Of a stretch of 64,000 nt of DNA, positions 26,112 through 49,727 are shown in pieces. This DNA comes from Minisyncoccota bacterium (lineage in GTDB: Bacteria > Patescibacteriota > Minisyncoccia > Phycocordibacterales > Phycocordibacteraceae). The stretch spans positions 259,355 to 323,354 of the forward strand of contig DASPLI010000001.1 in assembly GCA_035627655.1 (NCBI GenBank). Reading direction: 5' to 3'. The stretch's first letter is position 1. Each line of letters opens with the position of its first letter. The position numbers and the translations under genes are program-made. The notes under the pieces are model-generated. The model worked only from the letters and a program-made list of their open reading frames with translations. It searched no databases and was not told where the DNA came from.

Positions 26112-26130
26112 TCTGTCTACTTAGTGTACA
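26112..26130. promoter_or_regulatory. Palindromic candidate operator TAGTGT-N7-ACACTA in divergent promoter region upstream of PP2C gene
   Basis: Same half-sites and spacing as site upstream of pnuC (49709-49727). Confidence 0.45.
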
Positions 26131-26218
26131 AATGACACTAGGTAGCGAAATGGCGCTGCAGTTCCTTGAAAGGACCCATAACCCATTGCATCTAATCAAT
26201 TGAAAGGGGGTTGATCCC

Positions 26219-27052
26219 ATGGAGCTACTTCCGTTCTCGGTCGCCGGCGGTTCAGTCCCCGGTACCGAGCACACCAAGCCAGGGCAACCCGGCTGGACCA
26301 ACAACCAAGACGCATTCGCATGGTCGCAGGTACCAGGCGCACTTGCCGCTGTCGTTTGTGACGGCTGCGGAGGCGCGCCAAAGAGCGAAGTTGGGTCGCA
26401 GCTCGCTGCACCCTTCATCGCCTTGCGGCTCGCAGAACTGTGTCGAAGCATGAGCGTCGATGAGGCGCTCCTACTCGTCAATCTTCAGTTGAAGAATTTC
26501 TTGAGTGCGACCGCCAACCACTTGGCGCACAGCGTTCATGATGTTCCCAACATCGCAGGTGACTACTTCCTGTTCACGGTGCTCGGCGTCGTCATGACGC
26601 CCGAGCGTACCGTGATCTTTGAAGCGGGGGATGGCGTCTACGCCGTAAATGGCGAAGTCGTATGCATCCCGCCTTATCCCGATAACGCGCCGCCCTACTT
26701 GGGGCATCGTCTGACGGGGTGGTATCCGCAAGAGAAGATCGGTATTCGCATCCGTGCGGATCTGCCGACAGCGAAGGTCAACACCATTCTTATCGGCACC
26801 GACGGAGTCGCAGACGCGATAGCCGTCGCCGATGAGTTACTTCCCGGCAAACGACAGGGAGAGGTTTTCGGACCGATCCAACAATTTGTCGAGAACGATC
26901 TCTTCGTTCGTAATCCAGACGCAATTCGTCGGCGCCTCGCGCTTGCGAATCGCGAGCTGGTAGACGGAGAACATATCAAGAAAGGTCTGCTGCCAGACGA
27001 CACGACTCTCGTTGTCGTGCAGCGGCGGATCGAAGGAGGCAGCAATGCCTGA
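26219..27052 (+). CDS. PP2C-family (PPM) Ser/Thr protein phosphatase
   Basis: GxxHxxNQD, VCDGCGG, GTDGV, DDTTLVVV blocks; RBS AAGGGGG. Confidence 0.75.
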   Translation: MELLPFSVAGGSVPGTEHTKPGQPGWTNNQDAFAWSQVPGALAAVVCDGCGGAPKSEVGSQLAAPFIALRLAELCRSMSVDEALLLVNLQLKNFLSATANHLAHSVHDVPNIAGDYFLFTVLGVVMTPERTVIFEAGDGVYAVNGEVVCIPPYPDNAPPYLGHRLTGWYPQEKIGIRIRADLPTAKVNTILIGTDGVADAIAVADELLPGKRQGEVFGPIQQFVENDLFVRNPDAIRRRLALANRELVDGEHIKKGLLPDDTTLVVVQRRIEGGSNA

Positions 27053-28910
27053 CTATGTCATCAACGGCAGAACGCTTACGCTTCGGCCAAAAGACGCAGT
27101 CGGGAAGGGAGGAGAAGCGGACGTCTTCATCGAAGGCGGACGCGCGATCAAGATCTACAAGTCGCCGCGTCACCCGGACTTTACGGGCGACCCTGAAGCG
27201 CAAGCTGCGGCGCGCGATCGGATCGAAGAGCATCAGCGAAAACTCCCCGCATTCCCGCGCGGGCTTCCGGGGCGAGTCATCGTCCCGTCGGAGCTCGTGT
27301 ACGACACACACGGTCGCATTGCCGGCTACAGCATGAAGCCCCTCTTGGGTGCTGAAGTACTGTATCGGTACGGCGAACGTTCCTTCCGCGATGCCGGCGT
27401 CAAAGACGAAACGGCGGTCGCGGTTCTTGCCGACCTTCGCGGCACGGTAGAAGCCGTGCATAACGCGAATGTCGTCATCGGCGATTTCAACGACCTCAAC
27501 GTACTCGTCCTCGGACGAAACGCGCATCTGATTGACGCAGACAGCATGCAGTTCGGATCGTTCTATACGCGCGTGTTCACGACGAAATTCGTGGACCCGC
27601 TCATCTGCGATCCGAGAGCGAAGGCGCTCATCATGCGGGAGCCGCACAACAAAGCTTCCGACTGGTACGCCTACGCTGTCATGCTGATGCAGACACTACT
27701 GTTCGTAGGACCCTATGGCGGCGTGTATGCGCCGCAGGATCCTACCAAGCGGATTCCGCACGATCTGCGGCCGCTTCGGCGGGTGACGGTGTTTGACGGA
27801 GACGTCAGATATCCGAAACCTGCACGCCACTACCGCATCCTTCCGGATGACCTTCTCGAGTACTTCAAAAAAACCTTCGAGAAGGACGAACGCGTCGTGC
27901 CGCCTGCGCGCCTCGTCGAGAGCCTCCGGTTCACGACGTGTGCAAAGTGTGGCACCAATCATGCGCGGGCTCACTGCCCGTCCTGCGTGCACGTTACGGC
28001 GCCCATGCAGAAGGAAGTCCATAAAGGAGGCATCTCTGCCTTCAAGGAATTCTCGACTGACGGCGTCATACTGCATGCAGTGCTTGATCGCGATACGTTG
28101 CGGTTCGTTTATCACGACACGCAGATGTATCGGCGGGAGGATGGTTCTGAGCTCGCTTCTGGCGCGCTTGATCCACACTTCCGTTACCGCATTAGCGGCA
28201 CCAAAACGATCATGGGTCGCGGCGAACACGCCATCGTCTTTGACGGTGGGCGTCGCGATCAACTTGCAGTTGAGTCCTACGGACTCTTGCCCCTCTTCGA
28301 CGCCAACGCGAAGAACGTGTTCTTCGTGCGCGACGGAGGGTTGTGGCGTATCGGCACGCTCGGGATCTCGTATCCTGAGCGCTACGGAGACGTGCTTTCC
28401 GGCCAGACGCTGTTCTGGGTCGGAGAGCAACTTGGTTTCGGTTTGTATCGGGCGGGGGAGCTCTCACGCTTCTTCGTCTTCGATGCGAATCGAGCGGGTA
28501 TCAACGATTCGGTCAAACTTCCGCCGCTACGGGGGAAGATCGTCGATGCGACTTGTTCCTTCGGCGATGATCGGATCTGGTTCCTTGTCTCGACCGCTTA
28601 CGGCGGGAAGACGACGAACTACTGCTACGTCCTCGACGGACGAGGCGCACTCCTTGGACAGGCCGAAGCAGAAGCCGGAGACGGCAGCTGGCTCTCGACT
28701 CTCCGAGGCAAGTGCGCAACGAAAGGATTTCTCCTTGCGGCGACGGACGAGGGCGTAACGCGGATTGAATCCGCTAACGGTCTTGTTCAAGTCGCGAAGG
28801 AGTTTCCTGCGACTGCTGAGTTTGTCGACGCCGAAACGCGGTTGCTCCTTGGTTCCCAAGGGCTCTATGCGATTCGGCGCGGCGAAATCTGGAAACTAGT
28901 CCTCAAATAG
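27045..28910 (+). CDS. Protein-kinase-like (PKL/APH-type fold) protein with central CxxC...CxxC zinc ribbon and C-terminal beta-rich domain
   Basis: VGKGGEADVF...AIKIYK (Gly loop + Lys), HNANVVIGDFNDLNVLV and IDADS catalytic-like blocks; ATG overlaps PP2C stop (ATGCCTGA) after GAAGGAGG. Confidence 0.6.
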   Translation: MPDYVINGRTLTLRPKDAVGKGGEADVFIEGGRAIKIYKSPRHPDFTGDPEAQAAARDRIEEHQRKLPAFPRGLPGRVIVPSELVYDTHGRIAGYSMKPLLGAEVLYRYGERSFRDAGVKDETAVAVLADLRGTVEAVHNANVVIGDFNDLNVLVLGRNAHLIDADSMQFGSFYTRVFTTKFVDPLICDPRAKALIMREPHNKASDWYAYAVMLMQTLLFVGPYGGVYAPQDPTKRIPHDLRPLRRVTVFDGDVRYPKPARHYRILPDDLLEYFKKTFEKDERVVPPARLVESLRFTTCAKCGTNHARAHCPSCVHVTAPMQKEVHKGGISAFKEFSTDGVILHAVLDRDTLRFVYHDTQMYRREDGSELASGALDPHFRYRISGTKTIMGRGEHAIVFDGGRRDQLAVESYGLLPLFDANAKNVFFVRDGGLWRIGTLGISYPERYGDVLSGQTLFWVGEQLGFGLYRAGELSRFFVFDANRAGINDSVKLPPLRGKIVDATCSFGDDRIWFLVSTAYGGKTTNYCYVLDGRGALLGQAEAEAGDGSWLSTLRGKCATKGFLLAATDEGVTRIESANGLVQVAKEFPATAEFVDAETRLLLGSQGLYAIRRGEIWKLVLK

Positions 28911-28939
28911 GTTGAGGACCATCACAACGGAGACGTAAC

Positions 28940-30028
28940 ATGGCTCAATCTGTAGCCAGACAACTTCCCACCCCGCCGCTCTTCAATCCGAAGAACGCGG
29001 GCAACTGGGGCTATCGCCCCGACCAGCGTGCAATCTTCGAAACCGCCGCTGCCTGGAAAGGCCAACACGGTCTCAAGGCAGCGCGGCTCGATGGACAAAA
29101 AGTCATGCTGCTGCTGATCGACGTGCAGAAGGACTTCTGCCATCCGGAAGGCGCCCTCTACGTGGGCGGCCGGTCGGGTCGCGGTGCGATCGACGACTCG
29201 GCGCGCATTGCCGAGTTCATCTATCGCAATCTGAACGTCGTCTCCGACATCGCGACGACCTTGGATACGCACTTCGCGTACCAGATCTTCTCGCCGTCAT
29301 TCGTCGTCGACGAGAGCGGACAGCCGCTCAAGCCGTTCGACGTCGTGCTTGAAAACTGCGACATCATGCGCGCGGGCGTGTGCGTCGGGAAGGCTTCGGT
29401 CAGCCCGGCCGCCGCCGCGGTCGTCGCCAACGGCGACTACGCGACGCTGCAAAAGCAGTTCGAGTATTACTGCAAGACGCTTGGCCAAGGCGGCAAATAC
29501 AACCTCATCATGTGGCCCGAGCACTGCTTGCTCGGGTCCGAGGGCCACACCCTGGTCGGCGTCATTCACGAAGCGCGTCTCTTCCACGCGTACGCCCGCG
29601 CCTCGCAGTCGCACTGCGAGATCAAGGGCGGCAGCCCGTACACCGAGAACTACTCGGTGCTACAGCCGGAAGTGATGACCACGTTCGACGGCAAAGCCCT
29701 CCCGGGCGTGCAGAAGAACGCGCGATTCATCAAAATGCTGCTCAACTACGACCGCGTTATCGTCGCGGGCCAGGCGGGCAGTCACTGCGTGAAGAGTTCG
29801 ATCGACGACTTCCTCGCGGAAATCGTCGTGCAGGACCCGGCGCTTGCGCGCAAGGTCTACGTGCTCGAAGACTGCATGTCCGCAGTCACCGTGCCTGACG
29901 GCAAGGGCGGTTTCATCGCCGACTACACGCCGGACATGGACGCCGCGCTCGCCAAATTCGGCAACGCCGGCATGCATGTCGTGAAGTCCACAACGCCAGT
30001 CTCCGACTGGCCGGGCTTCCTGCAGTAA
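28940..30028 (+). CDS. pncA: Nicotinamidase (isochorismatase-fold), long form
   Basis: LLLIDVQKDFC, DTH metal site, IVAGQAGSHCVKSS catalytic Cys block closely parallel to E. coli PncA motifs. Confidence 0.7.
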   Translation: MAQSVARQLPTPPLFNPKNAGNWGYRPDQRAIFETAAAWKGQHGLKAARLDGQKVMLLLIDVQKDFCHPEGALYVGGRSGRGAIDDSARIAEFIYRNLNVVSDIATTLDTHFAYQIFSPSFVVDESGQPLKPFDVVLENCDIMRAGVCVGKASVSPAAAAVVANGDYATLQKQFEYYCKTLGQGGKYNLIMWPEHCLLGSEGHTLVGVIHEARLFHAYARASQSHCEIKGGSPYTENYSVLQPEVMTTFDGKALPGVQKNARFIKMLLNYDRVIVAGQAGSHCVKSSIDDFLAEIVVQDPALARKVYVLEDCMSAVTVPDGKGGFIADYTPDMDAALAKFGNAGMHVVKSTTPVSDWPGFLQ

Positions 30029-30102
30029 CGGTCATCCGGGCGTGTGCGGCGAGAGTAATCTCGCCGCATGGGCCCATCACATCAACCAGGGAAGGACATC
30101 CC

Positions 30103-30888
30103 ATGAACTCAACTGACGTTGGCGCTCTATTTAGCGCCGCAGGTAAAGACGGAACGCTCTCCAAAGGAGCGCTCTCGGTGCTCGACGCCGAAGACATCGG
30201 CGCCGTGATCAACCAAGGACTCGGCATCACACCCGACGACATCACTGCAAGCGAGGTCAACAACGTGTTCATGCTGCTCGACGACTCCAGTTCGATCGAG
30301 CATGCGGGCAACACGCAGCATGTTCGCGACGGGCACAACCTGATCGTGGACTCGCTACTGAAGACCAAGCAGGCGGATGCCATCATCATGTGCGGTCGCG
30401 CCCTCAATCGCGGGCAGATCTACCCGTGCGTTCGCCTCCCGGATGTGCCGCGTCTTGACGCGAGCAACTACAATCCGTCGGGCGGCACGCCGTTGTATGA
30501 CGAATCGACGATCATTCTCGGCATGGCGGCCGCCAAGCATCAGCAGTTTGCTGACAATGGCGTGCCGTGCCGGACGATCGTGCCGATCATCACCGACGGC
30601 GCCGACGTGGGCTCCCGCAAGCAGCGGCCAGACCACGTGCGGACCATCGTGCAAGATCTTCTGCGCACCGAGCAGTTCATCGTGATCGGCGTCGGCATCG
30701 ACGACGGCGTGACGAACTTCCGGTCGGTGTTCCAAAGCATGGGCATCGACGACCGCTGGATCCTGACCCCAGGCAATTCGCCAAGCGAAATTCGCAAGGC
30801 GTTTGCGATGGTGTCCCAGTCGGTATCGCGTGCGAGCCAGAACGCGCAAGCGTTCAGCACGGCTGCAATGGGCGGGTTTGCGGGGTAA
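30103..30888 (+). CDS. von Willebrand factor A (vWA) domain protein, TerY-like
   Basis: MIDAS DxSxS (LLDDSSSI), GGTPL, ITDGAD. Confidence 0.75.
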   Translation: MNSTDVGALFSAAGKDGTLSKGALSVLDAEDIGAVINQGLGITPDDITASEVNNVFMLLDDSSSIEHAGNTQHVRDGHNLIVDSLLKTKQADAIIMCGRALNRGQIYPCVRLPDVPRLDASNYNPSGGTPLYDESTIILGMAAAKHQQFADNGVPCRTIVPIITDGADVGSRKQRPDHVRTIVQDLLRTEQFIVIGVGIDDGVTNFRSVFQSMGIDDRWILTPGNSPSEIRKAFAMVSQSVSRASQNAQAFSTAAMGGFAG

Positions 30889-30921
30889 GATCCGCAGACC
30901 TCGGGTCCTGTTCTTTACAGG

Positions 30922-30946
30922 AAGCAGGAGGAGCATGATGCTCCTC
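30922..30946. repeat. Near-perfect 25-bp palindrome CAGGAGGAGCAT-G-ATGCTCCTCCTG
   Basis: 12-bp inverted arms around single central base. Confidence 0.6.
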
Positions 30947-30960
30947 CTGCAATCCTCGCT

Positions 30961-31024
30961 GAGATTCCTTCGGGAATCTCCTTTATAGGAGGCTTGAATC
31001 CTTCGAGCCTCCTTCAAGGAGAGA
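30961..31024 (+). promoter_or_regulatory. Structured leader element copy A (outer TCTCCTT/AAGGAGA helix enclosing GGAGGCT...AGCCTCC hairpin; 3' arm overlaps ARH RBS)
   Basis: Paralogous to 32039-32088 with compensatory stem substitutions. Confidence 0.5.
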
Positions 31025-31029
31025 GTTCT

Positions 31030-31992
31030 TTGCAACAACAGATCTCGCTCATCGAACGCTATCGCGGCGCGATGATTGGCGTACATGTCGGAGATGCGCT
31101 TGGGGCACCATACGAAACGTGGCCCGAAGAACGTATTCTCGCGGACATGCAGGCGCGCGACGGGCTCGTGCTCTTCGACTACGAAGACCCGTGGGGTAAG
31201 GACGGCCTCTTTCCGGCCGGATGCCCGACGGACGACTCGGAGTTGACCGCCGTACTCGCCGAACATCTTATTGAGAACCCAGAAGATCTTGAAGATCTCT
31301 ACGCACGCTTTCGCAGCTGCGTGGTGGATCGCAAGAGCCGCTTGTGCGCGCTTCCAGCATATGGATTTGGCGGCACAACGCGACGGGCGCTCAAGGAGCC
31401 GACGTATCGGGAAGCAGTTCAGCAGCCTAATACGCGGCCGCCGATTCCAAGCAACGGAGCGTTGATGCGGGCAGTGCCGATACCGCTTCGGTTCTTCGGT
31501 AGTCCGCGACAGGTCTCCGACTGCGCGTACGTTACATCGCTTATGACGCACCGGCATCCGCAAGCCATCGACGCATCCGTCGTCTATGCGCATCTGCTCT
31601 ATGGCGTTCTCGAACACGGGAACTACGAGCAGGCGGTCGCACGACTCGTCGGCATGTTGCCCGGTCTCACTGTCGACCAGGCGATTATCGACATCTTCCA
31701 TTCGCCGGCTCAAAAACCGGTGTTTGAAGGAAAGTTCGGCGGCGGCGCGCTCCATACACTTTGTGTGGTGCATTGGGCCGTCTCGACATCCACTTCCTTT
31801 GAAGAGGGGATGACGAAAGCAATCACGATCGGTAGTGATACCGATACGTACGGCGCGGTCGCTGGCGGTCTCCTCGGCGCCACCTACGGTGTACGAGGGA
31901 TCCCAGCCAAGTGGAAACATGGATTGCTTGGCGGCGTTCGTATGTGGCAGCTTGCTGAGAAGCTGCATGCGCTCGCCAATCCAGCGTCGTAA
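31030..31992 (+). CDS. ADP-ribosylglycohydrolase family protein (DraG/ARH-like)
   Basis: IERYRGAMIGVHVGDALGAPYE N-terminal signature, DDSELT, GSDTDTYGAVAGGLLGATYG C-terminal signature; likely TTG start at 31030 after AAGGAGAG (ORF-track start 30994 also TTG). Confidence 0.75.
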   Translation: MQQQISLIERYRGAMIGVHVGDALGAPYETWPEERILADMQARDGLVLFDYEDPWGKDGLFPAGCPTDDSELTAVLAEHLIENPEDLEDLYARFRSCVVDRKSRLCALPAYGFGGTTRRALKEPTYREAVQQPNTRPPIPSNGALMRAVPIPLRFFGSPRQVSDCAYVTSLMTHRHPQAIDASVVYAHLLYGVLEHGNYEQAVARLVGMLPGLTVDQAIIDIFHSPAQKPVFEGKFGGGALHTLCVVHWAVSTSTSFEEGMTKAITIGSDTDTYGAVAGGLLGATYGVRGIPAKWKHGLLGGVRMWQLAEKLHALANPAS

Positions 31993-31996
31993 TGCG

Positions 31997-32024
31997 TGGT
32001 GTGCGGGCCTTCGGGCCTGCACAC
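31997..32024 (+). other. GC hairpin with UUCG loop (GTGTGCGGGCC-TTCG-GGCCTGCACAC) after ARH gene
   Basis: 10/11-bp stem, no T-run. Confidence 0.4.
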
Positions 32025-32038
32025 TCCGCTTGTTCTAG

Positions 32039-32088
32039 CGAGATCTCCTTTATGGAGCGTTTGAGTTTCTCGAACGCTCCTCAAGGAA
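32039..32088 (+). promoter_or_regulatory. Structured leader element copy B upstream of nadE
   Basis: GAGATCTCCTTTATGGAGCGTTTGA...TCGAACGCTCCTCAAGGAAA; stem GGAGCGTT/AACGCTCC. Confidence 0.5.
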
Positions 32089-32142
32089 ATTGTGATCTTT
32101 GAGAACTATCGAACTCACCACTTCTAACAGAAGGAGGACTAC

Positions 32143-34014
32143 ATGCTTGGTTCACCGGTCCGGATCGTCGTCGCGCAAGTGGGGGCGGTTCCGGGTGATG
32201 TTGCGACCAACTTCGCAAACATATTCGACACGATTGCGACTGCGCGACGCGCGGCCGCCGATATCGTGGTGTTGCCGGAGCTTGCAACCACGGCATATGT
32301 GCTCGGCGATCGCTGGGAATACGACGCGTTCATTCGCGAAACCCAAGAAATCAACGAGCGGATCCGCGAAGCCTCCCGAGGACTCACTGTCATCTGGGGC
32401 TCGATCAAAGCGGATTTCGGCAAGATGGGCGAAGACGGTCGCGTGCGAAAATACAACGCCGCCTTCATCGCATCTCACGGCCGCTGGATCTCAAACGGCA
32501 CGCTGGACGGGTTCGTTCCCAAGACGAATCTGCCTAAGTACCGCATCTTCGACGATGCGCGCCACTTCTACCCGGCGGGGAAACTCGCCGCGGAAATGCA
32601 GACGCGTCTTGAAACGCTGCTCGCACCCTTCCCGCTGGTCATCAAAGGCAAGCGCTACAACATTGCGCTCTCTGTCTGCGAAGACCTCTGGCAGGACGAG
32701 TACAACGAGAAACCGGCGCAGATCTACAGTGCGCACGACTCCGATCTCATCATCGACATCTCGTGCTCGCCGTGGACGTACGGCAAGTGGCATGCGCGCG
32801 AAAATATGCTGAAGCGCCGCGTGAAGGACACGGGCATCCCGATCCTCTACGTGAACGCGATCGGCCTCGAAAACAACACCAAGAACTTGATTTGGTTCGA
32901 TGGCGACTCAGCGCTCATCGACGCCGAAGGACGGTTCCGGTGGCGCGGCCAACAGCACAAAGAGCAGATCCACATCCTCGATCTCGATGATCTCGACGGC
33001 CCACTCCCTGAGCGGACCTATACGGGTATCAAAGAGATTCACGACGCGACAGTCGCGGCAATGAAAGCCTTCTACGCTCCGTTCGCACGGGTCGTCGTCG
33101 GGCTTTCAGGCGGCATCGATTCGGCGCTCGCGCTCGCGCTTCTCACCGAAGCGCTCGGCGCCAAGCGACTGCTTGCGGTCAACATGCCGACCGAGTTCAA
33201 CTCGGAAACTACCCGAGGACTCGCAGCGCTCTGCGCTCGGAACCTCGGTGTCGAGTACGTCATCTCTCCGATCCAAGAAGCGTACGAGGAAGAACTTCGT
33301 GCGCTTCAAAAGCTCGGCATGACGCCGTCCGCACTCGATCGGGAAAACATCCAGGCAGTCTTGCGCGGCACGCGTCTCAACGCGATCGCCAAAGCGCAAG
33401 GCAGTATGCATGGCGGCGCCGGCGCATTCACCTGCAACGGCAACAAGACCGAGATGGCCCTCAACTACTTCACCCTCTATGGGGACGGAGCGGGCGCTGC
33501 GGCCTTTCTAGCCGATCTCTGGAAGGGTCAGATCTACGAGCTTGCACGCTACATCAACGAGCGTGCGGGCCGCGAGCTGATCCCGCAAGGGATTCTCGAC
33601 ATCGTGCCGTCGGCGGAACTCTCGAAGGATCAAGCGGTCGATGAGGGGAAGGGAGATCCTATCTTCTTCCCGTATCACGACCAGCTCCTGCGGGCGTTCA
33701 CCGAACTGCGCTGGGATCCGACCACGGTGCTCGAGCACTTGTGCGAAAGCAACGAGGCGCTCGAGCAGAAGCTCGGCTGTGCTCCCGGCACCGTCGCTCG
33801 GTACTTCAACTCGCGCCGCACGCTCGTCGATAACCTCGAATGGGCGTGGCGCCAGTACAACACCGAGTTCAAGCGCGGACAGACGCCGCCGGTCTTCCTC
33901 ACGTCGCGCCGAGCCTTCGGGTTCGACCGACGCGATACGATCGCCGCGGGATACCTGACGAAGCGCTACCAAGAACTCAAGCAAGCGTACTTGGCCGGCG
34001 AACTCGTCGCGTGA
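32143..34014 (+). CDS. nadE: Glutamine-dependent NAD+ synthetase (N-terminal CN-hydrolase/nitrilase domain + C-terminal NAD synthetase domain)
   Basis: 623 aa; nitrilase-type N-domain; GLSGGIDSAL PP-loop in C-domain; RBS AGGAGG. Confidence 0.88.
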   Translation: MLGSPVRIVVAQVGAVPGDVATNFANIFDTIATARRAAADIVVLPELATTAYVLGDRWEYDAFIRETQEINERIREASRGLTVIWGSIKADFGKMGEDGRVRKYNAAFIASHGRWISNGTLDGFVPKTNLPKYRIFDDARHFYPAGKLAAEMQTRLETLLAPFPLVIKGKRYNIALSVCEDLWQDEYNEKPAQIYSAHDSDLIIDISCSPWTYGKWHARENMLKRRVKDTGIPILYVNAIGLENNTKNLIWFDGDSALIDAEGRFRWRGQQHKEQIHILDLDDLDGPLPERTYTGIKEIHDATVAAMKAFYAPFARVVVGLSGGIDSALALALLTEALGAKRLLAVNMPTEFNSETTRGLAALCARNLGVEYVISPIQEAYEEELRALQKLGMTPSALDRENIQAVLRGTRLNAIAKAQGSMHGGAGAFTCNGNKTEMALNYFTLYGDGAGAAAFLADLWKGQIYELARYINERAGRELIPQGILDIVPSAELSKDQAVDEGKGDPIFFPYHDQLLRAFTELRWDPTTVLEHLCESNEALEQKLGCAPGTVARYFNSRRTLVDNLEWAWRQYNTEFKRGQTPPVFLTSRRAFGFDRRDTIAAGYLTKRYQELKQAYLAGELVA

Positions 34015-34159
34015 CGTTCGATGTGCAGGAGGGTTTCGGCCCTCCTGCATACCGTCCTTTCCTCGGGAAAGGACTTCGTATGGGGCGCCTAAGCAGATGC
34101 TTGGACGCCGCAACGGAGTTACAGATCTTTTTCACCTATAGACAACAGAAAGGAAACCA

Positions 34160-35527
34160 ATGACTGACTTCGTGGGGCGCGTACTGCGTCCTGAAAAAGA
34201 CGATTGGGTAATCCGGTCGCTTCTCGACGTGGACTTTTACAAGTTCACGATGGGGCTCTTTATCTTCCTGCTGCATCGCGGCGTGGAGGTGGAGTTCTGC
34301 CTGATCAACCGAAACCTAAAGCTTCCCCTCGCCGATATCGTCGACGAGGAGGAGCTTCGGCGACAGCTCGATCACGTGCGTACGCTGTGCCTCTCGCGCA
34401 CGGACGTCGTGTACTTGCGTGGCCAGGATGTGTACGGGCACAACATGTTCCCGGAAAACTATCTGGCGTTCTTGCGGCAGCTCGCGCTGCCCGAGTACAC
34501 GCTTCGGCGCGTCGGCAATCAGTATGAGCTGAAGTTCAAGGGTTCGTGGGAAACGGTGACGTTTTGGGAAACCATCGCGCTCGCCATCATTTCGGAACTC
34601 TTCTACCGCGCGCTCATGCAGTCGATGCCTGAGCACGAATTGCGCGTGCTATTTGGCCGCGCGATTGATCGCCTCTATCGGAAGCTCGAGAAGCTCAAGA
34701 CGCGTCCCTGGATTCGGTTCGCCGATTTCGGGCAGCGTCGCCGCTTCAGCTTCCTCTGGCAGCGGTTCGTTGATCAGACGTGTCGCGAGGTCGTGCCGCA
34801 GCAATTTGTGGGGACCAGTAACACCTGGATGGCCTTCAATCAGGACTTGGTGCCCATCGGTACCAATGCGCACGAGCTTCCCATGGTCCTCACCGCGCTT
34901 GCGGAGGGGGACGAAGCGAAGCGGTACGCGCAGTATCAGGTGCTCAGGGAGTGGGGAGGCATGTTCCCGCAAAACGCCCTGCGCATCATGCTGCCGGATA
35001 CCTACGGCTCCGAGCAGTTCTTCCAGAACATGCCGGCCGATCTTGCCGAAGAAGTTGCCGAAACCTGGCGCGGCCAGCGTCAGGATTCGGGCGATCCGAT
35101 CACGGAATGCCGCCGCTACACATCGTGGCTGCGCGGTTATATCCAGCCGGCACGCATTCGTTCAGAGCGCCTCAACATCTTTTCCGACGGCCTCGACATC
35201 GATCCCATCTTTGAGTTCGATGACCAGGTCAGAGACGAGATCCTCATCTCAAACGGGTGGGGTACGACGCTCACGAACGACTTCATCGATTGCCATCCGC
35301 GACCAGACGACCGTGCGGTCGTGCGCGGCAAAACGCTCGAGCTGACGAACCGTCAGTTGTGGCGTGGGCACTCGATCGTCTGCAAAGTCGAGTACGCCAA
35401 CGGGCGTCCGGCGGTAAAACTTTCAAACAACATTAACAAGGCGACCGGTCCTTCCAAGGAAGCGATCGCCGAGTACGTGCGCATCTTTGGCAACGAAGGT
35501 CGCGCAGCGCAGGATGTTGTCGTCTAA
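34160..35527 (+). CDS. pncB: Nicotinate phosphoribosyltransferase
   Basis: SLLDVDFYKFTMG, FGQRRRFS, GTSNTW, QDSGDP blocks align with E. coli PncB. Confidence 0.88.
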   Translation: MTDFVGRVLRPEKDDWVIRSLLDVDFYKFTMGLFIFLLHRGVEVEFCLINRNLKLPLADIVDEEELRRQLDHVRTLCLSRTDVVYLRGQDVYGHNMFPENYLAFLRQLALPEYTLRRVGNQYELKFKGSWETVTFWETIALAIISELFYRALMQSMPEHELRVLFGRAIDRLYRKLEKLKTRPWIRFADFGQRRRFSFLWQRFVDQTCREVVPQQFVGTSNTWMAFNQDLVPIGTNAHELPMVLTALAEGDEAKRYAQYQVLREWGGMFPQNALRIMLPDTYGSEQFFQNMPADLAEEVAETWRGQRQDSGDPITECRRYTSWLRGYIQPARIRSERLNIFSDGLDIDPIFEFDDQVRDEILISNGWGTTLTNDFIDCHPRPDDRAVVRGKTLELTNRQLWRGHSIVCKVEYANGRPAVKLSNNINKATGPSKEAIAEYVRIFGNEGRAAQDVVV

Positions 35528-35574
35528 AAATACTTGAACCCCCTACGCGAACATGTTCGCGTAGGGGGTTCTTT

Positions 35575-36462
35575 TTATGGTCGTGTGCGAGTCAGGAGTC
35601 GATGACCAAGCGTGTGGTGCCAGGGCACCAAGCGCTCGATCAGCGCATCGCGCTTCACCCAGTGGACGCTATCCGCGTCGTCTGCCGCAGTGGGCGTACC
35701 GGAGAGGTACGTGCCACGGAAGAAGGTGGTCGTGATGCCGTCCGTGCTGTTGCGATAGCGAGGATCGTTGATCGGGTCTGACCCCAACCACGTGAGTTCG
35801 CTGATCTCAACGCCCGGCACTTCTTCGCCAAACTCGCGCGGAGCGGCGTCTTCGTCGCGTTCGCCGACATTGACGTGTCCGCCCGGGAAGGACAACAGAC
35901 CTTCGTGCCGATTCTTGCCGATGAGAAGTACCTCATCGGTCGACGGCCGTTCGATCGCGATGTCGACCGTGCGGAACGCAATCGGATACCGACTGTTTAC
36001 CTGCCAGATCGCCGCGTCGCGCGCGTCCCGGGTATTCATGAGTCGCGCCGACTTCCGCAGGGCGGTGCCGCTTTCGCGCGCATCTTCCGACGCAAGCTCA
36101 ACGGTCGGGAATGTGCCCGAGTAGAGCGGTAGGAAGCTGTCGCGCGATCCGTAGAGGGTGATCGGGTTGAATGGAAATTCTTTCCGGATCAGTGCATCCA
36201 GATCGCGCGACCAGAAGGTCGGGTTGATCGGATGATCGAAGATCTCAAGGATCTTCGCCCGCGGATACGCGGATTTCATCATGTCCCGCCGCGCTTCGAA
36301 GGGAAGCGGGTTTTCCCGCGTCGCCTGACCTCCGGTAGAGGCAAGGACGACGAGCAGGTAGGCATGATTGTCGCGAGCGGTGTTGAGCACATGCAAATGG
36401 CCGCGGTGAAGATAGGGCACTTGGAAGCGTCCTACCACCACCCCAACCGATGGCAGTCCCAT
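35575..36462 (-). CDS. nadM: Bifunctional nicotinamide/nicotinate mononucleotide adenylyltransferase - Nudix (ADP-ribose pyrophosphatase) fusion, NadM-Nudix type
   Basis: N-term GVVVGRFQVPYLHRGHL (HxGH nucleotidyltransferase), C-term Nudix box GGHVNVGERDEDAAPREFGEEVPGV; ATG 36460-36462 after AAGGAGA. Confidence 0.75.
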   Translation of the reverse strand: MGLPSVGVVVGRFQVPYLHRGHLHVLNTARDNHAYLLVVLASTGGQATRENPLPFEARRDMMKSAYPRAKILEIFDHPINPTFWSRDLDALIRKEFPFNPITLYGSRDSFLPLYSGTFPTVELASEDARESGTALRKSARLMNTRDARDAAIWQVNSRYPIAFRTVDIAIERPSTDEVLLIGKNRHEGLLSFPGGHVNVGERDEDAAPREFGEEVPGVEISELTWLGSDPINDPRYRNSTDGITTTFFRGTYLSGTPTAADDADSVHWVKRDALIERLVPWHHTLGHRLLTRTRP

Positions 36463-36475
36463 GGCATTTCTCCTT

Positions 36476-36491
36476 TTCTTGCTAGAAAGAA
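36476..36491. promoter_or_regulatory. 16-bp palindrome TTCTTGCTAGAAAGAA abutting nadM Shine-Dalgarno
   Basis: 7/8 matched inverted half-sites. Confidence 0.35.
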
Positions 36492-36495
36492 CGGA

Positions 36496-36524
36496 TGAAA
36501 AAAGGCAGGCTGGAATGCCTGCGC
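36496..36524 (-). terminator. Hairpin + U-run (minus orientation) between nrtR-like gene and nadM (terminator or attenuator)
   Basis: GCAGGC-ATTCCA-GCCTGC followed by TTTTTTCAT on minus strand. Confidence 0.55.
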
Positions 36525-36562
36525 TTTCTGTATTCAATCGTAAAAAAGGGGGAGTGTCAATG

Positions 36563-37249
36563 TTACAGCACCTCGATTTCCTTCACGTCCTTGGATGCAA
36601 ACGTATAGAGCTGGGCAGGGCGGGAACGGCCCCCGCGACGCTTTTTCGGGAGTTCCTTCAGGATCCCGAGCTTGAGGATTTTCTTGCGGAAGTTTCGCTT
36701 GTCGAGATCGCGCTCCAAAATGCATTCATAGGTGCGCTCAAGCTCGGTGAGCGTGAATTCCTCAGGCATCAGCTGTGCGATGAGGGTGGTGTACGTGATG
36801 CGCGAGCGCAGGCGCGCCCGGGCCGCTGCAAGCACTTCGTTGTGATCGTAGGCGAGGGTTGTCTTTTCGTGTGCCGGGCTCCACCAGGAATCGTCTGTGT
36901 CTTTGCGCTCCTCCTCCGTCAGGGCATCCCAGGGGACGCAGGCGATATAAGCGACCGCAACCGCCCGGCTGCGGGGGTCTCGATTCACTGCGCTGAAGGT
37001 CGCCAGCTGCTCCATATAGATGTGGGAGGAGGAAATGCCGGTACGACCCTTCAGGTGGCGAATAGCGGCCTCTTCAGCCGTTTCTGTGGCATCCAGGAGA
37101 CCTCCGGGAAGGCCGGGGACCCCCGGGAAGTGGGGTGGGCGGTTCACCCGGATGAGGCGGACCAAGAGGGTCGCCTCCCGAATCGTAAAGAGCGCGATGT
37201 CCGCAGCAAGGACCGCAAACCGCAACGGCTCCGGATTTTGAGGGGTCAT
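36563..37249 (-). CDS. nrtR: Nudix-related transcriptional regulator (NrtR-like: degenerate Nudix domain + C-terminal winged-helix)
   Basis: Degenerate Nudix box GLPGGLLDATETAEEAAIRHLKGRTGI (catalytic Glu positions altered), basic helix-rich C-terminus; gene context with NAD salvage genes. Confidence 0.55.
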   Translation of the reverse strand: MTPQNPEPLRFAVLAADIALFTIREATLLVRLIRVNRPPHFPGVPGLPGGLLDATETAEEAAIRHLKGRTGISSSHIYMEQLATFSAVNRDPRSRAVAVAYIACVPWDALTEEERKDTDDSWWSPAHEKTTLAYDHNEVLAAARARLRSRITYTTLIAQLMPEEFTLTELERTYECILERDLDKRNFRKKILKLGILKELPKKRRGGRSRPAQLYTFASKDVKEIEVL

Positions 37250-37292
37250 ATGGACACTATAGCAAGGCGCCAGGCCGAATGATACGAAAAGT

Positions 37293-37347
37293 TTGACATA
37301 CCTTCGCGTTTCCTATAGATTTTGCGTATCCGCCTCAGGCGGCTTTT
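37293..37347 (+). promoter_or_regulatory. Promoter TTGACA-N17-TAGATT and leader hairpin CCGCC-TCA-GGCGG + CTTTT upstream of rpsS
   Basis: Consensus hexamers 37293-37298 / 37316-37321. Confidence 0.55.
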
Positions 37348-37355
37348 GACTACTC

Positions 37356-37694
37356 ATGTCCCGCTCACTCAAGAAAGGACCCTACGTCGACGTCAAGTTG
37401 ATGAAGAAGGTTAAAGACAAGAAACCCGCATCCGCTGGGGTTATTCGAACATGGGCGCGCCAGTCGCAGATTGCGCCTGAGTTCGTCGGCTTTACCTTTG
37501 GCGTCCATAACGGCAAGACGCACGTGGATGTCCTCGTCACCGAGGATATGGTCGGCCACAAGCTTGGCGAATTCTCGCCAACCAAGAAGTTCCTCCGTCA
37601 CGGCGGAAAGATGCAGAAGGAGCTTGAGCAAAAGAAGAAGGAGGCTGAGATTGCCGCTGCAAAGGCGTCAAAGTCAGAGCCGGCTAAGAAATAA
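37356..37694 (+). CDS. rpsS: 30S ribosomal protein S19 with Lys-rich C-terminal extension
   Basis: Canonical S19 core. Confidence 0.93.
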
Positions 37695-41163: not shown

Positions 41164-41300
41164 GTACCTATCTCCTATCGTTGCCGTCTGCCGCAACAGT
41201 ACACGCAACAAAGACTGCGTCAAGGATTCGCACACTCGCGTCTATTGACTTCCCCTAGGACAGGCATAGGGTATTAAGTACCCCAAGAAAGGAGGGGTCG

Positions 41301-41681
41301 ATGAAACAGTTACTCATCATCGCCGCAGCGCTTGCTCTCGGGTGGTTCACCCCAGAAGCACGAGCGCAGGAGTACTTGCACCTTGATACACCGCCGCTTG
41401 CCCAGGAGGAGAAAGAACTTCCTCTTGAGCTTTCGTACACGCAAGACCGCCAGCAGTCCTTCGGCATCTTCTCGCCACTCGTTGAGAATGATGTAGAGAG
41501 CGACCGCTTGGTTTTGGTCTCGCCGGAAGTCCGGTTTGCCGAGGGAATCACTGGTTCCTTCTATGAGATTCGGGTTTCATGCCCGGTCTCGCGCCAGGAC
41601 TATCCAGCTGGCTGTCCGCCGGCGTACGAAAGCGTGAAAGCATACGGCGTGGTACTCCGCATACGCCTACCATTTCGGTAA
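41301..41681 (+). CDS. Small secreted protein with signal peptide
   Basis: MKQLLIIAAALALGWFTPEARA signal; RBS AAAGGAGGGG. Confidence 0.5.
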   Translation: MKQLLIIAAALALGWFTPEARAQEYLHLDTPPLAQEEKELPLELSYTQDRQQSFGIFSPLVENDVESDRLVLVSPEVRFAEGITGSFYEIRVSCPVSRQDYPAGCPPAYESVKAYGVVLRIRLPFR

Positions 41682-43914: not shown

Positions 43915-43916
43915 GT

Positions 43917-44363: not shown

Positions 44364-44370
44364 GCGATCA

Positions 44371-45642: not shown

Positions 45643-45668
45643 AAGGCCCTTTGAGGGCCTTTTTGGTC
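45642..45668 (+). terminator. Intrinsic terminator after secY
   Basis: AAAGGCCC-TTTGA-GGGCCTTT + TTGG. Confidence 0.7.
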
Positions 45669-45686
45669 GCGGTACACTCTGTTTAC

Positions 45687-46250
45687 ATGACTCCGAGAAC
45701 TATTTTCTTTATTGGTAAGCCAGGCTGCGGCAAGGGTACGCAGGCGCGGCTCTTGTCTGAGCATACCGGCTGGCCAATCATCGGCGCGGGCGCGCAGTTT
45801 CGCCAGATCGCTGCAGAGGAAACGCCGGCAGGTGAGCGCACGAAGCGGGATATCGACCAGGGACTTCTCATGCCGCACTGGTTTGCTATGTATCTCTACC
45901 TGAAGGGACTCTTCTCGCTTCCGGGGAATGCGTCAGTCATTTTCGATGGCTTCAACCGCAAACTTGCCGAAGCAGAACTTATCGTCGCATCGCTCACCTG
46001 GCTTGAGCGCCCGTTTGATGTTGTGCATATCGCCGTCTCTGACGAGGAGGTGCGCCGCCGCCTTGAAGGACGCAAATCTGAGGGTCGTGCAGACGATCAT
46101 TCGGTCGATACACGGCTGACCGAGTACGAGACCTACACCACCAAGGCCATCTCTCTGTTTGAGACACATGGCGTACTCAAGACCGTCAACGGCGAGCAAC
46201 CGCCAGAAGCAATTGCCAAGGATGTGCTTGCCGTCCTCAATCTTGCATGA
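45687..46250 (+). CDS. adk: Adenylate kinase (short type lacking zinc LID)
   Basis: P-loop FFIGKPGCGKGTQA; position after secY. Confidence 0.8.
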   Translation: MTPRTIFFIGKPGCGKGTQARLLSEHTGWPIIGAGAQFRQIAAEETPAGERTKRDIDQGLLMPHWFAMYLYLKGLFSLPGNASVIFDGFNRKLAEAELIVASLTWLERPFDVVHIAVSDEEVRRRLEGRKSEGRADDHSVDTRLTEYETYTTKAISLFETHGVLKTVNGEQPPEAIAKDVLAVLNLA

Positions 46251-47023: not shown

Positions 47024-47078
47024 GGAACGGCTTTCCGCTATACTCCGGACATATAAGAGCCTTAGGGCTATTTTTCGT

Positions 47079-47687
47079 ATGGTACATCCACACCCGGCAA
47101 CCGAGCGTACGTTCGTCATTCTGAAGCCTGATGCGGTCCAGCGCGGACTCATCGGCGAGATTATCAAGCGCTTTGAGCGCGTGGGCCTCAAGGTCACGCA
47201 CCTCTCATTTCAAATGCTTGACCAGAAGCGCGTAAACGAGCATTACGGCAAAGAAGACGAGTGGTATTTGCGTAAAGGAAACGGCATTATCGAGAACCGC
47301 AAGGCGCACGGCCTCCCAGTGGAGAAGGATGCGCTTGAGTACGGCAAGGACATCATCCGCGTCGTCGAGGCGTACATGATCTCTGGTCCGGTAGTCATCC
47401 TCGTATTGCAGGGGAATCAGGCGGTTGCGGTGGTGAAGAAGCTGGTTGGTTCAACCGAACCGACGACCTCAGACGTTGGTACGATCCGCGGTGATTTTAC
47501 GCTCGACTCGTACAGCATCTCTGCGCTTGATGATCGCGGTATCCGCAACCTGATTCACTGCTCGGACTCTCCGGAGGAAGCAGAGCGCGAGATCAAGCTC
47601 TGGCTTACGGAAGACCAGATCCTCAAGTACCGCCTCGTCTCCGAACAGATTCTCTACGACGTGAACCTCGACGGGATCATGGAGTAA
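47079..47687 (+). CDS. ndk: Nucleoside diphosphate kinase with ~45-aa insertion
   Basis: FVILKPDAVQRGLIGEII, NLIHCSD (catalytic His). Confidence 0.8.
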   Translation: MVHPHPATERTFVILKPDAVQRGLIGEIIKRFERVGLKVTHLSFQMLDQKRVNEHYGKEDEWYLRKGNGIIENRKAHGLPVEKDALEYGKDIIRVVEAYMISGPVVILVLQGNQAVAVVKKLVGSTEPTTSDVGTIRGDFTLDSYSISALDDRGIRNLIHCSDSPEEAEREIKLWLTEDQILKYRLVSEQILYDVNLDGIME

Positions 47688-47690
47688 GGA

Positions 47691-47720
47691 AAACGGCCTG
47701 AAATCGGGCCGTTTTTCGTA
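47691..47720 (+). terminator. Intrinsic terminator after ndk
   Basis: AAACGGCC-TGAAATC-GGGCCGTTT + TTCGTAT. Confidence 0.75.
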
Positions 47721-47941
47721 TCCACACGACCTTCATAGCTGCGCGGTATACTAAGTGTAGGCCGCTTCGTATAAACGCAACTTGCTCTCTTTCAGGGAAT
47801 CCTACATTCAGGCGTCTCGGGTGAACATTTCATGCTCTAACGGGCGCCATGCGGATACCCACGTGGCATACAAAAGTTGCCACACGCGGAGCGGCTCTGA
47901 GACATCCCGCCTTAGAAAAGGGCGGGATTTCTCATGCTAGG

Positions 47942-48313
47942 ATGATCCTATCTATGCGTTTTCCGTGGCTTATTGCGGCGCTCTTGTTCGCCGCACTCCT
48001 CTCACTGTTGCAGCATTGGGCGCTCGCCGATTTTCTGTACTGGCGCTATGTCTGGTTTGACGTGCCGATGCACTATCTTGGTGGCGTGGCGCTCGGCTCA
48101 TTCTTGATCGCGCTTTCGCCGCAGTTTCGGCCGCGTGTGTACTTGCTTGGCATCATCATTTTGATTATCGGATGGGAGGTGTTCGAGTACATTTTTGGTC
48201 TTCCGCGCGAGCATAACTACGTACTTGATACGTCGATCGACCTTCTTATGGGAACCCTGGGAGCGCTGACGACTTATATCATCGCCCGTCGAACGTTATG
48301 GCGCTCCGTCTAA
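47942..48313 (+). CDS. Small polytopic membrane protein
   Basis: ATG 47942; hydrophobic. Confidence 0.4.
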   Translation: MILSMRFPWLIAALLFAALLSLLQHWALADFLYWRYVWFDVPMHYLGGVALGSFLIALSPQFRPRVYLLGIIILIIGWEVFEYIFGLPREHNYVLDTSIDLLMGTLGALTTYIIARRTLWRSV

Positions 48314-49689
48314 CGACTTACGGAGGAGCCGAGACAGTCACCGGCTCCAACTTTCTTGTCGAAGGAAGTCACGGCAAGGTGTTGGTTGATTGCGGTATTG
48401 AACAGGGGAAAGAGTATGCGGAGCGGCGAGCGTATGAGCCGTTTCCCTACGATGTCTCATCTATCGACGCGCTTGTGATTACGCACGCGCACCTTGATCA
48501 TGTCGGGCGTGCGCCGCGACTCGTGCGCGAGGGATTTCGCGGCAAAGTGTACATGACCGCGCCAACGCGCGATCTTACCGCTGCCATTCTTCATGACAGC
48601 ATTGCAATTCTTGCAGATAACGCTCGCAAGCATAACCTTCCGGTGCTCTATGAAGCGCATGACGTAGAAACCTTGCTCTCGCATATCGTGGTCGTGCCGT
48701 ATCGCAAGGAGACGGAAATAGCGCCAGGACTGACGATGCTTCTTCGCGACACCGGGCACATTCTTGGATCAGCGAGTGTTCGCTTGCGTGACGAGGATGG
48801 GAGTACGCTTGCTATCACGAGCGACATCGGCAATTCGCCTGCGCTCCTCCTGCCGGATGCAGAGCCGGTAACTGATGCGAGCGTCGTGCTCATGGAGAGT
48901 GTGTACGGAGACCGGGAGAACCCGGAGAAGGCGCATCGGGAAGAGAAGCTTCGAGATACACTCAAGGCTGCGATTGCGCGCGGCGGCACCATTCTCATGC
49001 CAGCGTTCTCCATAGAGCGCACGCAGCTCATGCTCTACGAGATTTCGCGCATGTTTACGGAAGGCCAGCTGCCGAAAGTTCCGGTCTTTCTGGACTCGCC
49101 GCTTGCGATTTCCGTTACCGATATCTATCGATCGTGGGGAGGGGAGTATTTCAATACTGAGGCGAAAAACGAAATGCATGCCCATGACCTGTTCTCGTTT
49201 CCGTTTCTGCATATGACGCGTTCGCGCGAAGAATCGCAAACCATCGGCCACGAGCCGGATCCAAAGATCATCATCGCGGGGGCGGGCATGAGCCACGGCG
49301 GTCGGATAGGGAGGTGGGAAGTGCGCTACCTGCCCGACCCAAAGACGACGCTCATTTTGGTTGGGTACCAGGCGCCGGGAAGTCCGGGACGCATGATGCA
49401 GGATGGGGCGAAGAAGGTACGAATTGACGGCAAGGAGGTAAAGATCCGAGCGACAATTGAAACCCTGCACGGATGGTCTGGACACGCAGACCGTGACGGA
49501 CTCCTCCGGTTTGCCGAAGCGTGTACGGGCGCGAAAGCATTCATTGTCGGAATAGGGGAGCCGTCCTCTGCCCGGTTTCTCGCCCAAAGAATCCATGATT
49601 TTGTAGGAAAAAAGGCCGTAGTTCCCGTCTCTGGCGAGACGTTCGAGATCACCCCGGCCGGTCTGGTTCGAGGAGAGTTCCGTGCTTGA
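48298..49689 (+). CDS. beta-CASP family MBL-fold RNA-metabolising hydrolase
   Basis: THAHLDHVG (HxHxDH), beta-CASP motifs, C-terminal RMMBL-like region. Confidence 0.75.
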   Translation: MALRLTTYGGAETVTGSNFLVEGSHGKVLVDCGIEQGKEYAERRAYEPFPYDVSSIDALVITHAHLDHVGRAPRLVREGFRGKVYMTAPTRDLTAAILHDSIAILADNARKHNLPVLYEAHDVETLLSHIVVVPYRKETEIAPGLTMLLRDTGHILGSASVRLRDEDGSTLAITSDIGNSPALLLPDAEPVTDASVVLMESVYGDRENPEKAHREEKLRDTLKAAIARGGTILMPAFSIERTQLMLYEISRMFTEGQLPKVPVFLDSPLAISVTDIYRSWGGEYFNTEAKNEMHAHDLFSFPFLHMTRSREESQTIGHEPDPKIIIAGAGMSHGGRIGRWEVRYLPDPKTTLILVGYQAPGSPGRMMQDGAKKVRIDGKEVKIRATIETLHGWSGHADRDGLLRFAEACTGAKAFIVGIGEPSSARFLAQRIHDFVGKKAVVPVSGETFEITPAGLVRGEFRA

Positions 49690-49727
49690 CAGCCTCTTCC
49701 CTATCAGTTAGTGTAGATTATACACTA
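49686..49727 (+). promoter_or_regulatory. pnuC promoter (TTGACA-N17-TAGTGT) overlapped by 21-bp palindrome TTAGTGTAgATtATACACTAA
   Basis: TAGTGT-N7-ACACTA at 49709-49727 overlapping -10. Confidence 0.55.

Follow-up and report, generated by a model that had tools for sequence, protein, structure and literature searches.

In the 64-kb window examined here (the whole stretch of 64,000 nt that was analysed, from contig DASPLI010000001.1 of a Minisyncoccota bacterium), two copies of the palindrome TAGTGT-N7-ACACTA lie upstream of genes connected with nicotinamide adenine dinucleotide (NAD). One precedes an operon headed by a gene for a PP2C-type phosphatase, and the other precedes pnuC-nadR, the genes for uptake and conversion of nicotinamide riboside (NR). 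Judged by comparison with related loci, these palindromes are very probably operators of an NrtR-family repressor, encoded at 36563-37249, which would control NAD salvage together with a cassette of genes for the phosphatase, a kinase-like protein with a zinc ribbon, a PncA-like protein and a vWA-domain protein. We infer that NrtR binds at both sites and represses transcription there. The arrangement reads as an NrtR regulon in a bacterium of the candidate phyla radiation (CPR) with a lineage-specific half-site, that is, a known type of switch and not a new kind; a search of the available literature library found no described NrtR regulon for the CPR/Paceibacterota.

The pattern has two exact matches in the window, and half-sites and spacing are identical in both, as the initial annotation had reported. 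Operator 1 has its 19-bp core at 26122-26140 (TAGTGTACAAATGACACTA), within a 21-bp NrtR-type palindrome at 26121-26141 (tTAGTGTACAAATGACACTAg). It ends 78 nt short of the PP2C ATG, and on the other side its start is 81 nt upstream of a divergent DUF3298 gene. Operator 2 has its core at 49709-49727 (TAGTGTAGATTATACACTA), within a 21-bp element at 49708-49728 (TTAGTGTAGATTATACACTAA) that is a perfect 8 + 5 + 8 palindrome (TTAGTGTA-GATTA-TACACTAA) and ends 12 nt before the pnuC ATG; neither element is assigned to a strand. The coordinates first given for operator 2 were those of the core, and the 21-mer quoted with them corresponds to 49708-49728; those first given for operator 1 (26112-26130) were 10 bp too low. 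The published operator of the NrtR family is likewise a 21-bp palindrome with the core GT-N7-AC (Rodionov et al. 2008; PMC2330246), and the geometry of the motif equals this consensus, in line with the remark in the initial annotation that members of the family bind palindromes of ∼21 bp.

No exact match was found in any of 100 dinucleotide-preserving shuffles, and relaxing the pattern to 2-3 mismatches added window matches at chance level only. With a 21-position weight matrix built from the sites of related loci, operator 2 scores 32.1 bits and operator 1 scores 24.2 bits. The next-best position in the window (11.7 bits) falls within the range of the maxima from 20 shuffles (5.4-13.3 bits). 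We also considered a candidate at 27697-27715, inside the kinase gene, and rejected it as a chance-level match (2 mismatches, 4.0 bits).

In a scan of GTDB genomes with the NrtR protein, no relative exceeded 43% identity; those found (Gaiellales, Lachnospiraceae and others) carried neither motif nor cassette, and footprinting was therefore carried out on metagenome loci. These comprised 80 related loci (853 kb, cited below by number with the prefix L) from a scan anchored on the kinase-like protein, and further loci were obtained by exact-protein look-ups. At ≤1 mismatch, the pattern occurs 57 times in the 853 kb, compared to 2.2 expected from shuffles, and exact copies number 20, compared to 0.04 expected. 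The motif is thus not at random frequency in the window or in the related loci. Sites are concentrated in the ∼10% of DNA that is intergenic by the open reading frame (ORF) calls (46/60, loci and window combined), and several of those counted as coding are artefacts of over-extended ORF starts. A flank consensus from 55 sites, computed from positions unused in their selection, reads t-TAGTGTa-N5(AT-rich)-tACACTA-a.

These sites stand before a restricted set of genes. A site was present between -400 and +90 for 20 of 22 nrtR genes, 26 of 47 PP2C genes and 2 of 2 pnuC genes, versus 14 of 514 unannotated ORFs. Some of these 14 are themselves NAD genes, namely nadA-nadC plus a quinolinate phosphoribosyltransferase-like gene in L046 and an ADP-ribosylglycohydrolase (ARH) gene in L097. 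In all, sites are also seen upstream of pncB (L067, L110), nadA-nadC (L046) and ARH (L097), and in L026, where NrtR is 70% identical to that of the window, an exact site lies upstream of the first gene of a rearranged operon. The recurrence of the motif before nrtR, the PP2C cassette, pnuC-nadR, pncB and nadA across dozens of relatives supports the initial proposal that one regulator links the PP2C operon to NR uptake and salvage.

As an independent test, four loci (L110-L113, 83 kb) were fetched by PnuC homology. In 4/4, the top site (26.7-32.5 bits) is separated by 11-15 nt from the pnuC ATG that follows it and by 16-19 nt from a TTGAC that precedes it, and the same pnuC-proximal position is also occupied in L041 and L097. 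Beyond the pnuC sites, only three others in L110-L113 exceed 10 bits: two in L110, upstream of pncB (31.2 bits) and of a Nudix-nadE pair (23.5 bits), and a second site in the intergenic region between the divergent nrtR and pnuC of L113 (18.9 bits). The Nudix-nadE arrangement (L110, 7089-9869) places an NrtR-type site directly before a 243-aa Nudix gene that is followed by nadE. Only a Nudix domain is recorded for this gene, which gave no tblastn match to the window NrtR at E ≤1e-6; its product could be a regulator that has diverged or else a hydrolase under regulation.

The same motif is carried by two cyanobacterial loci, L114 (Leptolyngbya sp. 'hensonii', 2750-10792) and L115 (from a 7.2-Mb JGI genome, 4432-10801). 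In both, nrtR is divergent from PP2C-(ARH)-kinase-PncA-like-vWA, with Uma2-family genes interspersed. Tandem TAGTGT-N7-ACAC operators lie between the -35 and -10 elements, and L114 has a second operator pair before the kinase gene. In the regions compared, these loci share with the window only nrtR and the cassette (plus ARH in the case of L114). NrtR is the sole DNA-binding protein recognised among the genes common to the window and the two loci.

The nrtR gene (36563-37249, minus strand) encodes a Nudix-related transcriptional regulator of 228 aa. The initial annotation had noticed an NrtR-like Nudix regulator encoded in the island; its gene lies next to the PP2C operon, and the protein indeed belongs to the NrtR family over its full length. 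It matches PF21906 (NrtR_WHD, 3.6e-25, residues 158-217) and PF00293 (Nudix, 8.4e-9), and full-length alignments were obtained to the crystallised proteins 3GZ5 (S. oneidensis NrtR, 4e-27) and 5BS6 (B. thetaiotaomicron AraR, 8e-29). The NCBIfam model of an ADP-ribose-responsive repressor (NF050029) matches residues 13-221 at 3.9e-42 with 144 bits, below its 400-bit equivalog cutoff. The Nudix box is degenerate: GX5E is kept, REUXEE has become RHLKGR and the catalytic glutamates are lost, which would fit a sensor whose ligand is bound but not hydrolysed. In the window, nrtR is clustered with NAD genes, nrtR-nadM being convergent with pncB-nadE and 12.5 kb from pnuC-nadR. The nadM-like gene (35575-36537, minus strand), downstream of nrtR, encodes a fusion of nicotinamide mononucleotide (NMN) adenylyltransferase and Nudix domains (PF01467 and PF00293, with weak PRK05379 matches).

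A TAGTGT half-site is found 4 nt before the nrtR ATG in the window (37240-37260) and in L026 (9990-10010), the other half being coding sequence (ATGACCCCT). In L028 and L029, a full site of 22.5 bits lies 27 nt upstream of nrtR. The half-site may represent decayed autoregulation or autoregulation through a half-site. A third site in the window, 37241-37259 at the nrtR start, was tried and dropped as non-significant (3 mismatches, 4.5 bits).

The pnuC gene (49741-50436, plus strand) encodes a nicotinamide riboside transporter (PF04973, 7.2e-38; TIGR01528, 5.6e-20, above cutoff). A putative -35 hexamer, TTGACA, is read from the sequence at 49686-49691 on the plus strand; it overlaps the stop codon with which the preceding beta-CASP gene ends. 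Exactly 17 nt further on is TAGTGT (49709-49714, plus strand), which by this spacing would be the -10 hexamer. The putative -10 is at the same time the left half-site of operator 2, and of the -10 consensus it retains the T, A and final T. This agrees with the initial annotation, in which the site overlapped the -10 of a TTGACA-N17 promoter: TTGAC is kept in 4/4 orthologous loci, and the -10 of L110-L113 reads TATAGT, overlapping the same half-site. A consensus promoter scan called no promoter at either operator, and TTGACA-N17-TAGTGT went uncalled because TAGTGT matches TATAAT at 3/6 positions only. Given this, the pnuC promoter rests on the conserved TTGAC and its spacing.

The nadR-like gene (50429-51400, plus strand) overlaps the end of pnuC by 8 nt and encodes an NMN adenylyltransferase / ribosylnicotinamide kinase (TIGR01526, 7.6e-64, aligned from ORF residue 35 and model position 2). 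From its start, the ATG at 50429, the product begins MYKRGLVIGKFYPPHRGH, which is the NMN adenylyltransferase motif. Because the protein opens directly with this motif, it has no helix-turn-helix (HTH) domain, and profile searches gave no HTH match to it, as had been noted at the outset. A second protein of the AAA_28 family (NadR-kinase-like P-loop, 368 aa) is encoded 2 kb downstream of nadR (53235-54341); it has no NMN adenylyltransferase domain, NCBIfam match or NrtR site.

Upstream of PP2C in many relatives, and in the two cyanobacterial loci, the sequence runs TTGACA-[TAGTGT-N7-ACAC]-TAnnnT, followed by a second operator. Where two operators are present, the first occupies precisely the spacer between -35 and -10 and the second lies over the transcription start, and the arrangement would be a textbook repressor layout. 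The operators overlap putative promoters at pnuC and at PP2C of many relatives; the window PP2C locus has a single operator, at which no promoter is readable.

Operator 1 is followed by seven co-directional plus-strand genes, in an order that is kept in L028 and L029: PP2C, kinase, PncA-like, vWA, ARH, nadE and pncB. The first (26219-27052) encodes the PP2C-type phosphatase (PF13672, PP2C_2, 1.7e-17). The second (27045-28910) encodes the protein-kinase-like protein of 621 aa, which has invariant G-loop, Lys, GDFNDLN and DxD motifs and weak profile matches (LanL kinase domain, 2.2e-7; Pkinase, 0.02; PDB, 0.086; zinc-ribbon hints). Its zinc ribbon, CxxC-x8-CxxC, reads CAKC-x8-CPSC. The C-terminal domain of this protein (∼300 aa, 27945-28910, residues ∼340-632) shows strong conservation, many of its G, W and D residues being invariant, and has no Pfam, NCBIfam or PDB sequence-profile match.

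The third gene (28940-30028) encodes an enlarged PncA-like protein of the isochorismatase family (PF00857, 8.7e-4; NF008623, 2e-6; M. tuberculosis PncA 3PL1, E 0.034). The triad D61/K229/C283 and the metal motif D109-x-H111 are invariant across 35 homologues, and the protein is a probable nicotinamidase. The fourth product (30103-30888, 261 aa) is a vWA-domain protein without Pfam annotation, in which the residues of the metal-ion-dependent adhesion site (MIDAS; DDSGS...T...D), D60, D61, S62, S64, T129 and D165, are invariant. An AlphaFold2 model (pLDDT 89, pTM 0.88) was used in a Foldseek search, and the top matches were nearly all vWA or integrin I domains, with E down to 4e-7. The MIDAS motif, Pfam VWA matches in relatives and the fold search led us to reject a COG1058/CinA-like ADP-ribose pyrophosphatase, to which one weak MoCF_biosynth match had pointed. 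PDB sequence-profile searches with the vWA, PncA-like and kinase families gave marginal matches only.

The remaining genes of the unit encode an ADP-ribosylglycohydrolase of the DraG/ARH family (30994-31992; PF03747, 1.7e-55), the glutamine-dependent NAD synthetase NadE (32143-34014; PF02540, 1.3e-34; PF00795, 5e-13) and the nicotinate phosphoribosyltransferase PncB (34160-35527; PF04095, PF17767), whose gene is the last on the plus strand. A bidirectional intrinsic terminator with a 16-bp stem and T-runs on both strands (35536-35571, assigned to neither strand) lies between pncB and the nadM-like gene and closes both the PP2C-pncB unit and the convergent nadM-nrtR. Within the unit, we found no strong terminator before 35536 and one weak terminator-like hairpin at 30889-30907. 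The seven genes are inferred to form one transcript.

We propose the following mechanism. An NrtR dimer would sit on tTAGTGTa-N5-tACACTAa. At pnuC-nadR, operator 2 lies over the -10 region and probably over the transcription start as well; since the half-site overlaps the -10, bound NrtR would occlude both and block RNA polymerase. From 78 nt upstream of PP2C, operator 1 would control the seven-gene unit from PP2C to pncB, up to the strong terminator. When NAD is consumed, ADP-ribose would bind the catalytically dead Nudix domain and NrtR would leave the DNA. Release would then switch on NR uptake and conversion (PnuC, NadR), nicotinamide/nicotinate salvage (PncA-like, PncB, NadE), and the co-transcribed genes for phospho-signalling and de-ADP-ribosylation. 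ADP-ribose does suppress DNA binding of Synechocystis and Shewanella NrtR in vitro (PMC2330246).

Several points weigh against this reading. The weight matrix was applied to the very loci from which it had been built, the independent test being the count of the window-derived pattern. Among relatives, a site is found in only 26 of the 47 PP2C upstream regions. In the window, no recognisable promoter accompanies operator 1 (TTGCTT-N17-TACAAA is marginal), so that the argument for control of the PP2C unit is one of conservation rather than of the local promoter. The 105-150 nt that separate ARH, nadE and pncB from the genes before them leave room for NrtR-independent promoters, and nrtR-nadM has no significant upstream site in this genome. 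Finally, the best PDB match of NrtR is AraR (5BS6), a member of the family whose signal is arabinose and not ADP-ribose. The suggestion of ADP-ribose as the effector therefore draws on genomic context, and on what is known of the family.

Some of these points bear on a narrower form of control, in which pnuC-nadR alone is truly NrtR-controlled, operator 1 serves the cassette or the DUF3298 gene, and nadE and pncB have constitutive promoters of their own. We consider this unlikely, while giving it some weight. It would account for the gaps before ARH, nadE and pncB and for the weak hairpin at 30889-30907, and it fits the separate pncB site in L067 and L110 and the finding that cassette and NAD genes need not stand together in other genomes. 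Operator 1 is also equidistant from the divergent DUF3298 gene, a further point against control of the whole unit. However, the unit contains no strong terminator before 35536, its seven genes are co-directional and in the same order in L028/L029, and DUF3298 stands beside the site in 1 of ∼80 loci only.

Could the palindromes instead be operators of another transcription factor, with NrtR binding elsewhere or not at all? The window nrtR lacks a significant site of its own and the pnuC loci L111 and L112 show no nrtR within 10 kb, as such a factor might predict. Yet the motif has the geometry of the NrtR family, precedes nrtR in 20/22 relatives, and travels with nrtR and the cassette into cyanobacteria, with no other DNA-binding protein recognised among the shared genes. 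NadR is not a candidate, lacking an HTH, and no NiaR- or NadQ-like gene was seen among the scanned ORFs flanking the two sites. This makes a different regulator very unlikely. Less probable still, and hardly credible to us, is a role of the palindromes as RNA, that is, as 6-bp hairpins in 5′ leaders affecting stability, translation or termination. Both sites are near start codons on the coding strand, operator 2 only 12 nt from the pnuC ATG, and folding is possible for any palindrome. But it is the half-site sequence itself that is conserved: of the deviations found at the six core pairs in 94 unique sites, 91 are one-sided and 3 compensatory, which favours a protein site over an RNA hairpin. 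Furthermore, the spacer is AT-rich and of fixed length, many relatives have their sites between -35 and -10, where transcription would not reach them, the motif works in either orientation in divergent nrtR-PP2C regions, and no terminator-like feature was called at either site. Control by NrtR of both the salvage genes and the cassette remains the reading we favour.

Among the related loci, we counted homologues of the kinase (77), PP2C (62), the PncA-like protein (54) and the vWA protein (34). PP2C, kinase-zinc-ribbon, PncA-like and vWA form a conserved four-gene cassette, often beside nrtR, pncB, nadE or pnuC-nadR. ARH is variable, being missing from many cassette copies, and cassette and NAD genes can be found apart in other genomes. 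The vWA homologues listed have no Pfam annotation and, by source names, also come from Planctomycetota, Myxococcales and Cyanobacteria, at ∼50% identity.

In the window, these genes interrupt a ribosomal protein cluster. The S10 cluster is split, with rpsJ-rplC-rplD-rplW-rplB ending at 24270 and rpsS starting at 37356, and the insert (24271-37355) holds a 2-oxoglutarate-Fe(II)-oxygenase-like gene, the DUF3298 gene, the NAD/cassette operon and nadM-nrtR. The initial annotation had called this block an island. However, the nrtR-rpsS junction is kept in L026, L028 and L029, this junction and the gene order recur in relatives with an NrtR 67-70% identical to that of the window, and the G+C content of the ∼24.3-37.3 kb block (0.58-0.60) is near that of its surroundings. 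The block is therefore old and typical of the lineage, and the idea of a recent insertion is not borne out.

Two further features of the window may be recorded. A low-G+C stretch at 5000-9500 (0.44-0.49 versus ∼0.57 elsewhere), which may be foreign DNA, includes a 926-aa ORF (6535-9315, minus strand) with an LCAT-like alpha/beta-hydrolase domain. Immediately upstream of a 126-aa ORF without Pfam match (41301-41681) is another near-palindrome, ATAGGGTATTAAGTACCCCAA (GGGTA-N5-TACCC, 41266-41286), which scores 11.6 bits with the NrtR matrix. Within the spc cluster, this ORF forms an insertion that separates rplE from rpsN, and an ORF of similar size occupies the same place in L026 and L028.

To our knowledge, transcriptional regulation in the CPR/Patescibacteria is almost unexplored. 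Reduced CPR organisms rely on scavenged cofactor precursors. From the regulon one would expect NAD breakdown to induce NAD salvage, and in an uncultivated lineage it offers a testable circuit made up of one regulator, its 21-bp operator and about nine target genes. What is less ordinary is that NrtR and its operator are coupled, in a way conserved across phyla, to a TerY-P-like phospho-signalling cassette in which a PncA-like enzyme is embedded. This coupling of the cassette to a predicted ADP-ribose-sensing repressor suggests a role in NAD/ADP-ribose signalling or defence. A tentative extension, which we think possible if on balance doubtful, is that nrtR, its operators, PP2C, kinase-zinc-ribbon, PncA-like, vWA and often ARH constitute an undescribed signalling or conflict system induced by ADP-ribose. 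It would be common to CPR, cyanobacteria and, by source names alone, planctomycetes and myxobacteria, with a TerY-P-like switch deployed together with NAD re-synthesis and with the NR uptake genes additionally captured in CPR. If so, the cassette would respond to NAD destruction or protein ADP-ribosylation, e.g. during phage attack or host-symbiont conflict.

The closest known systems are the NrtR regulons. In various phyla, NrtR sites precede nadR-pnuC, pncAB, nadE, nadM-nadV and draG (PMC2330246). The window shares with these regulons a Nudix plus winged-helix regulator (compare the S. oneidensis NrtR-DNA structure, 3GZ6) and a 21-bp GT-N7-AC operator, and, as there, nrtR lies in a cluster with its predicted targets. 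A further feature of those regulons, operators that overlap promoters of NAD salvage genes (pnuC-nadR, pncB, nadE, nadM), is matched at the putative pnuC promoter. The linkage of a draG/ARH gene is known from Streptomyces too, and tandem sites and autoregulation occur in relatives of the window. Unlike the described regulons, this one belongs to the CPR/Paceibacterota, its half-site TAGTGT is specific to the subfamily of the window, and there is no autoregulatory site in this genome. Moreover, the main conserved target is the PP2C/kinase/PncA-like/vWA cassette, which is not named among the targets of the 2008 paper (PMC2330246); it may or may not correspond to the nrtX-nrtY targets given there. 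The enterobacterial NadR repressor similarly couples pnuC and NAD salvage to NAD status, and the window has a NadR enzyme encoded beside pnuC. That repressor, however, has an HTH and the operator TGTTTA-N6-TAAACA, whereas NadR of the window has no HTH and the operator described here is unrelated in sequence and spacing.

The cassette itself resembles the TerY-P triad, which PMC11090510 describes, after Anantharaman et al. 2012 and Gao et al. 2020, as a vWA protein (TerY), a PP2C and a Ser/Thr kinase with a C-terminal zinc ribbon. Compared with the triad as outlined there, the cassette likewise has a MIDAS vWA and a PP2C, and its putative kinase, recognised by invariant motifs and weak profile matches, is followed by a CxxC...CxxC ribbon. 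It differs in its embedded PncA-like gene, in the extra ∼300-aa C-terminal domain of the kinase, and in being linked to NAD salvage and NrtR, not to tellurite resistance or restriction genes. PADLOC-DB models gave no match at E ≤0.01 for the PP2C, kinase, PncA-like and vWA proteins, and the resemblance to TerY-P is therefore architectural only.

Finally, Iyer et al. 2022 described ARG-centric systems with Nudix-HTH or WYL regulators, which are predicted to reverse viral ADP-ribosylation (PMC9503650, section 3.8). The operon of the window has in common with these an ARH, a Nudix-HTH regulator that is predicted to act negatively, and an associated phosphatase and vWA protein. Profile scans of the operon revealed no ADP-ribosyltransferase or sirtuin domain, so that ARH stands without a partner transferase, as in the ARG-centric systems. 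The phosphatases of those systems are most often of the rhodanese-phosphatase type, or else calcineurin-like, HD or HAD (PMC9503650), whereas that of the window is a PP2C. The window also differs in having a kinase and a PncA-like enzyme as its core, with ARH variable, and in a regulator that is predicted to control bona fide NAD salvage genes as well.

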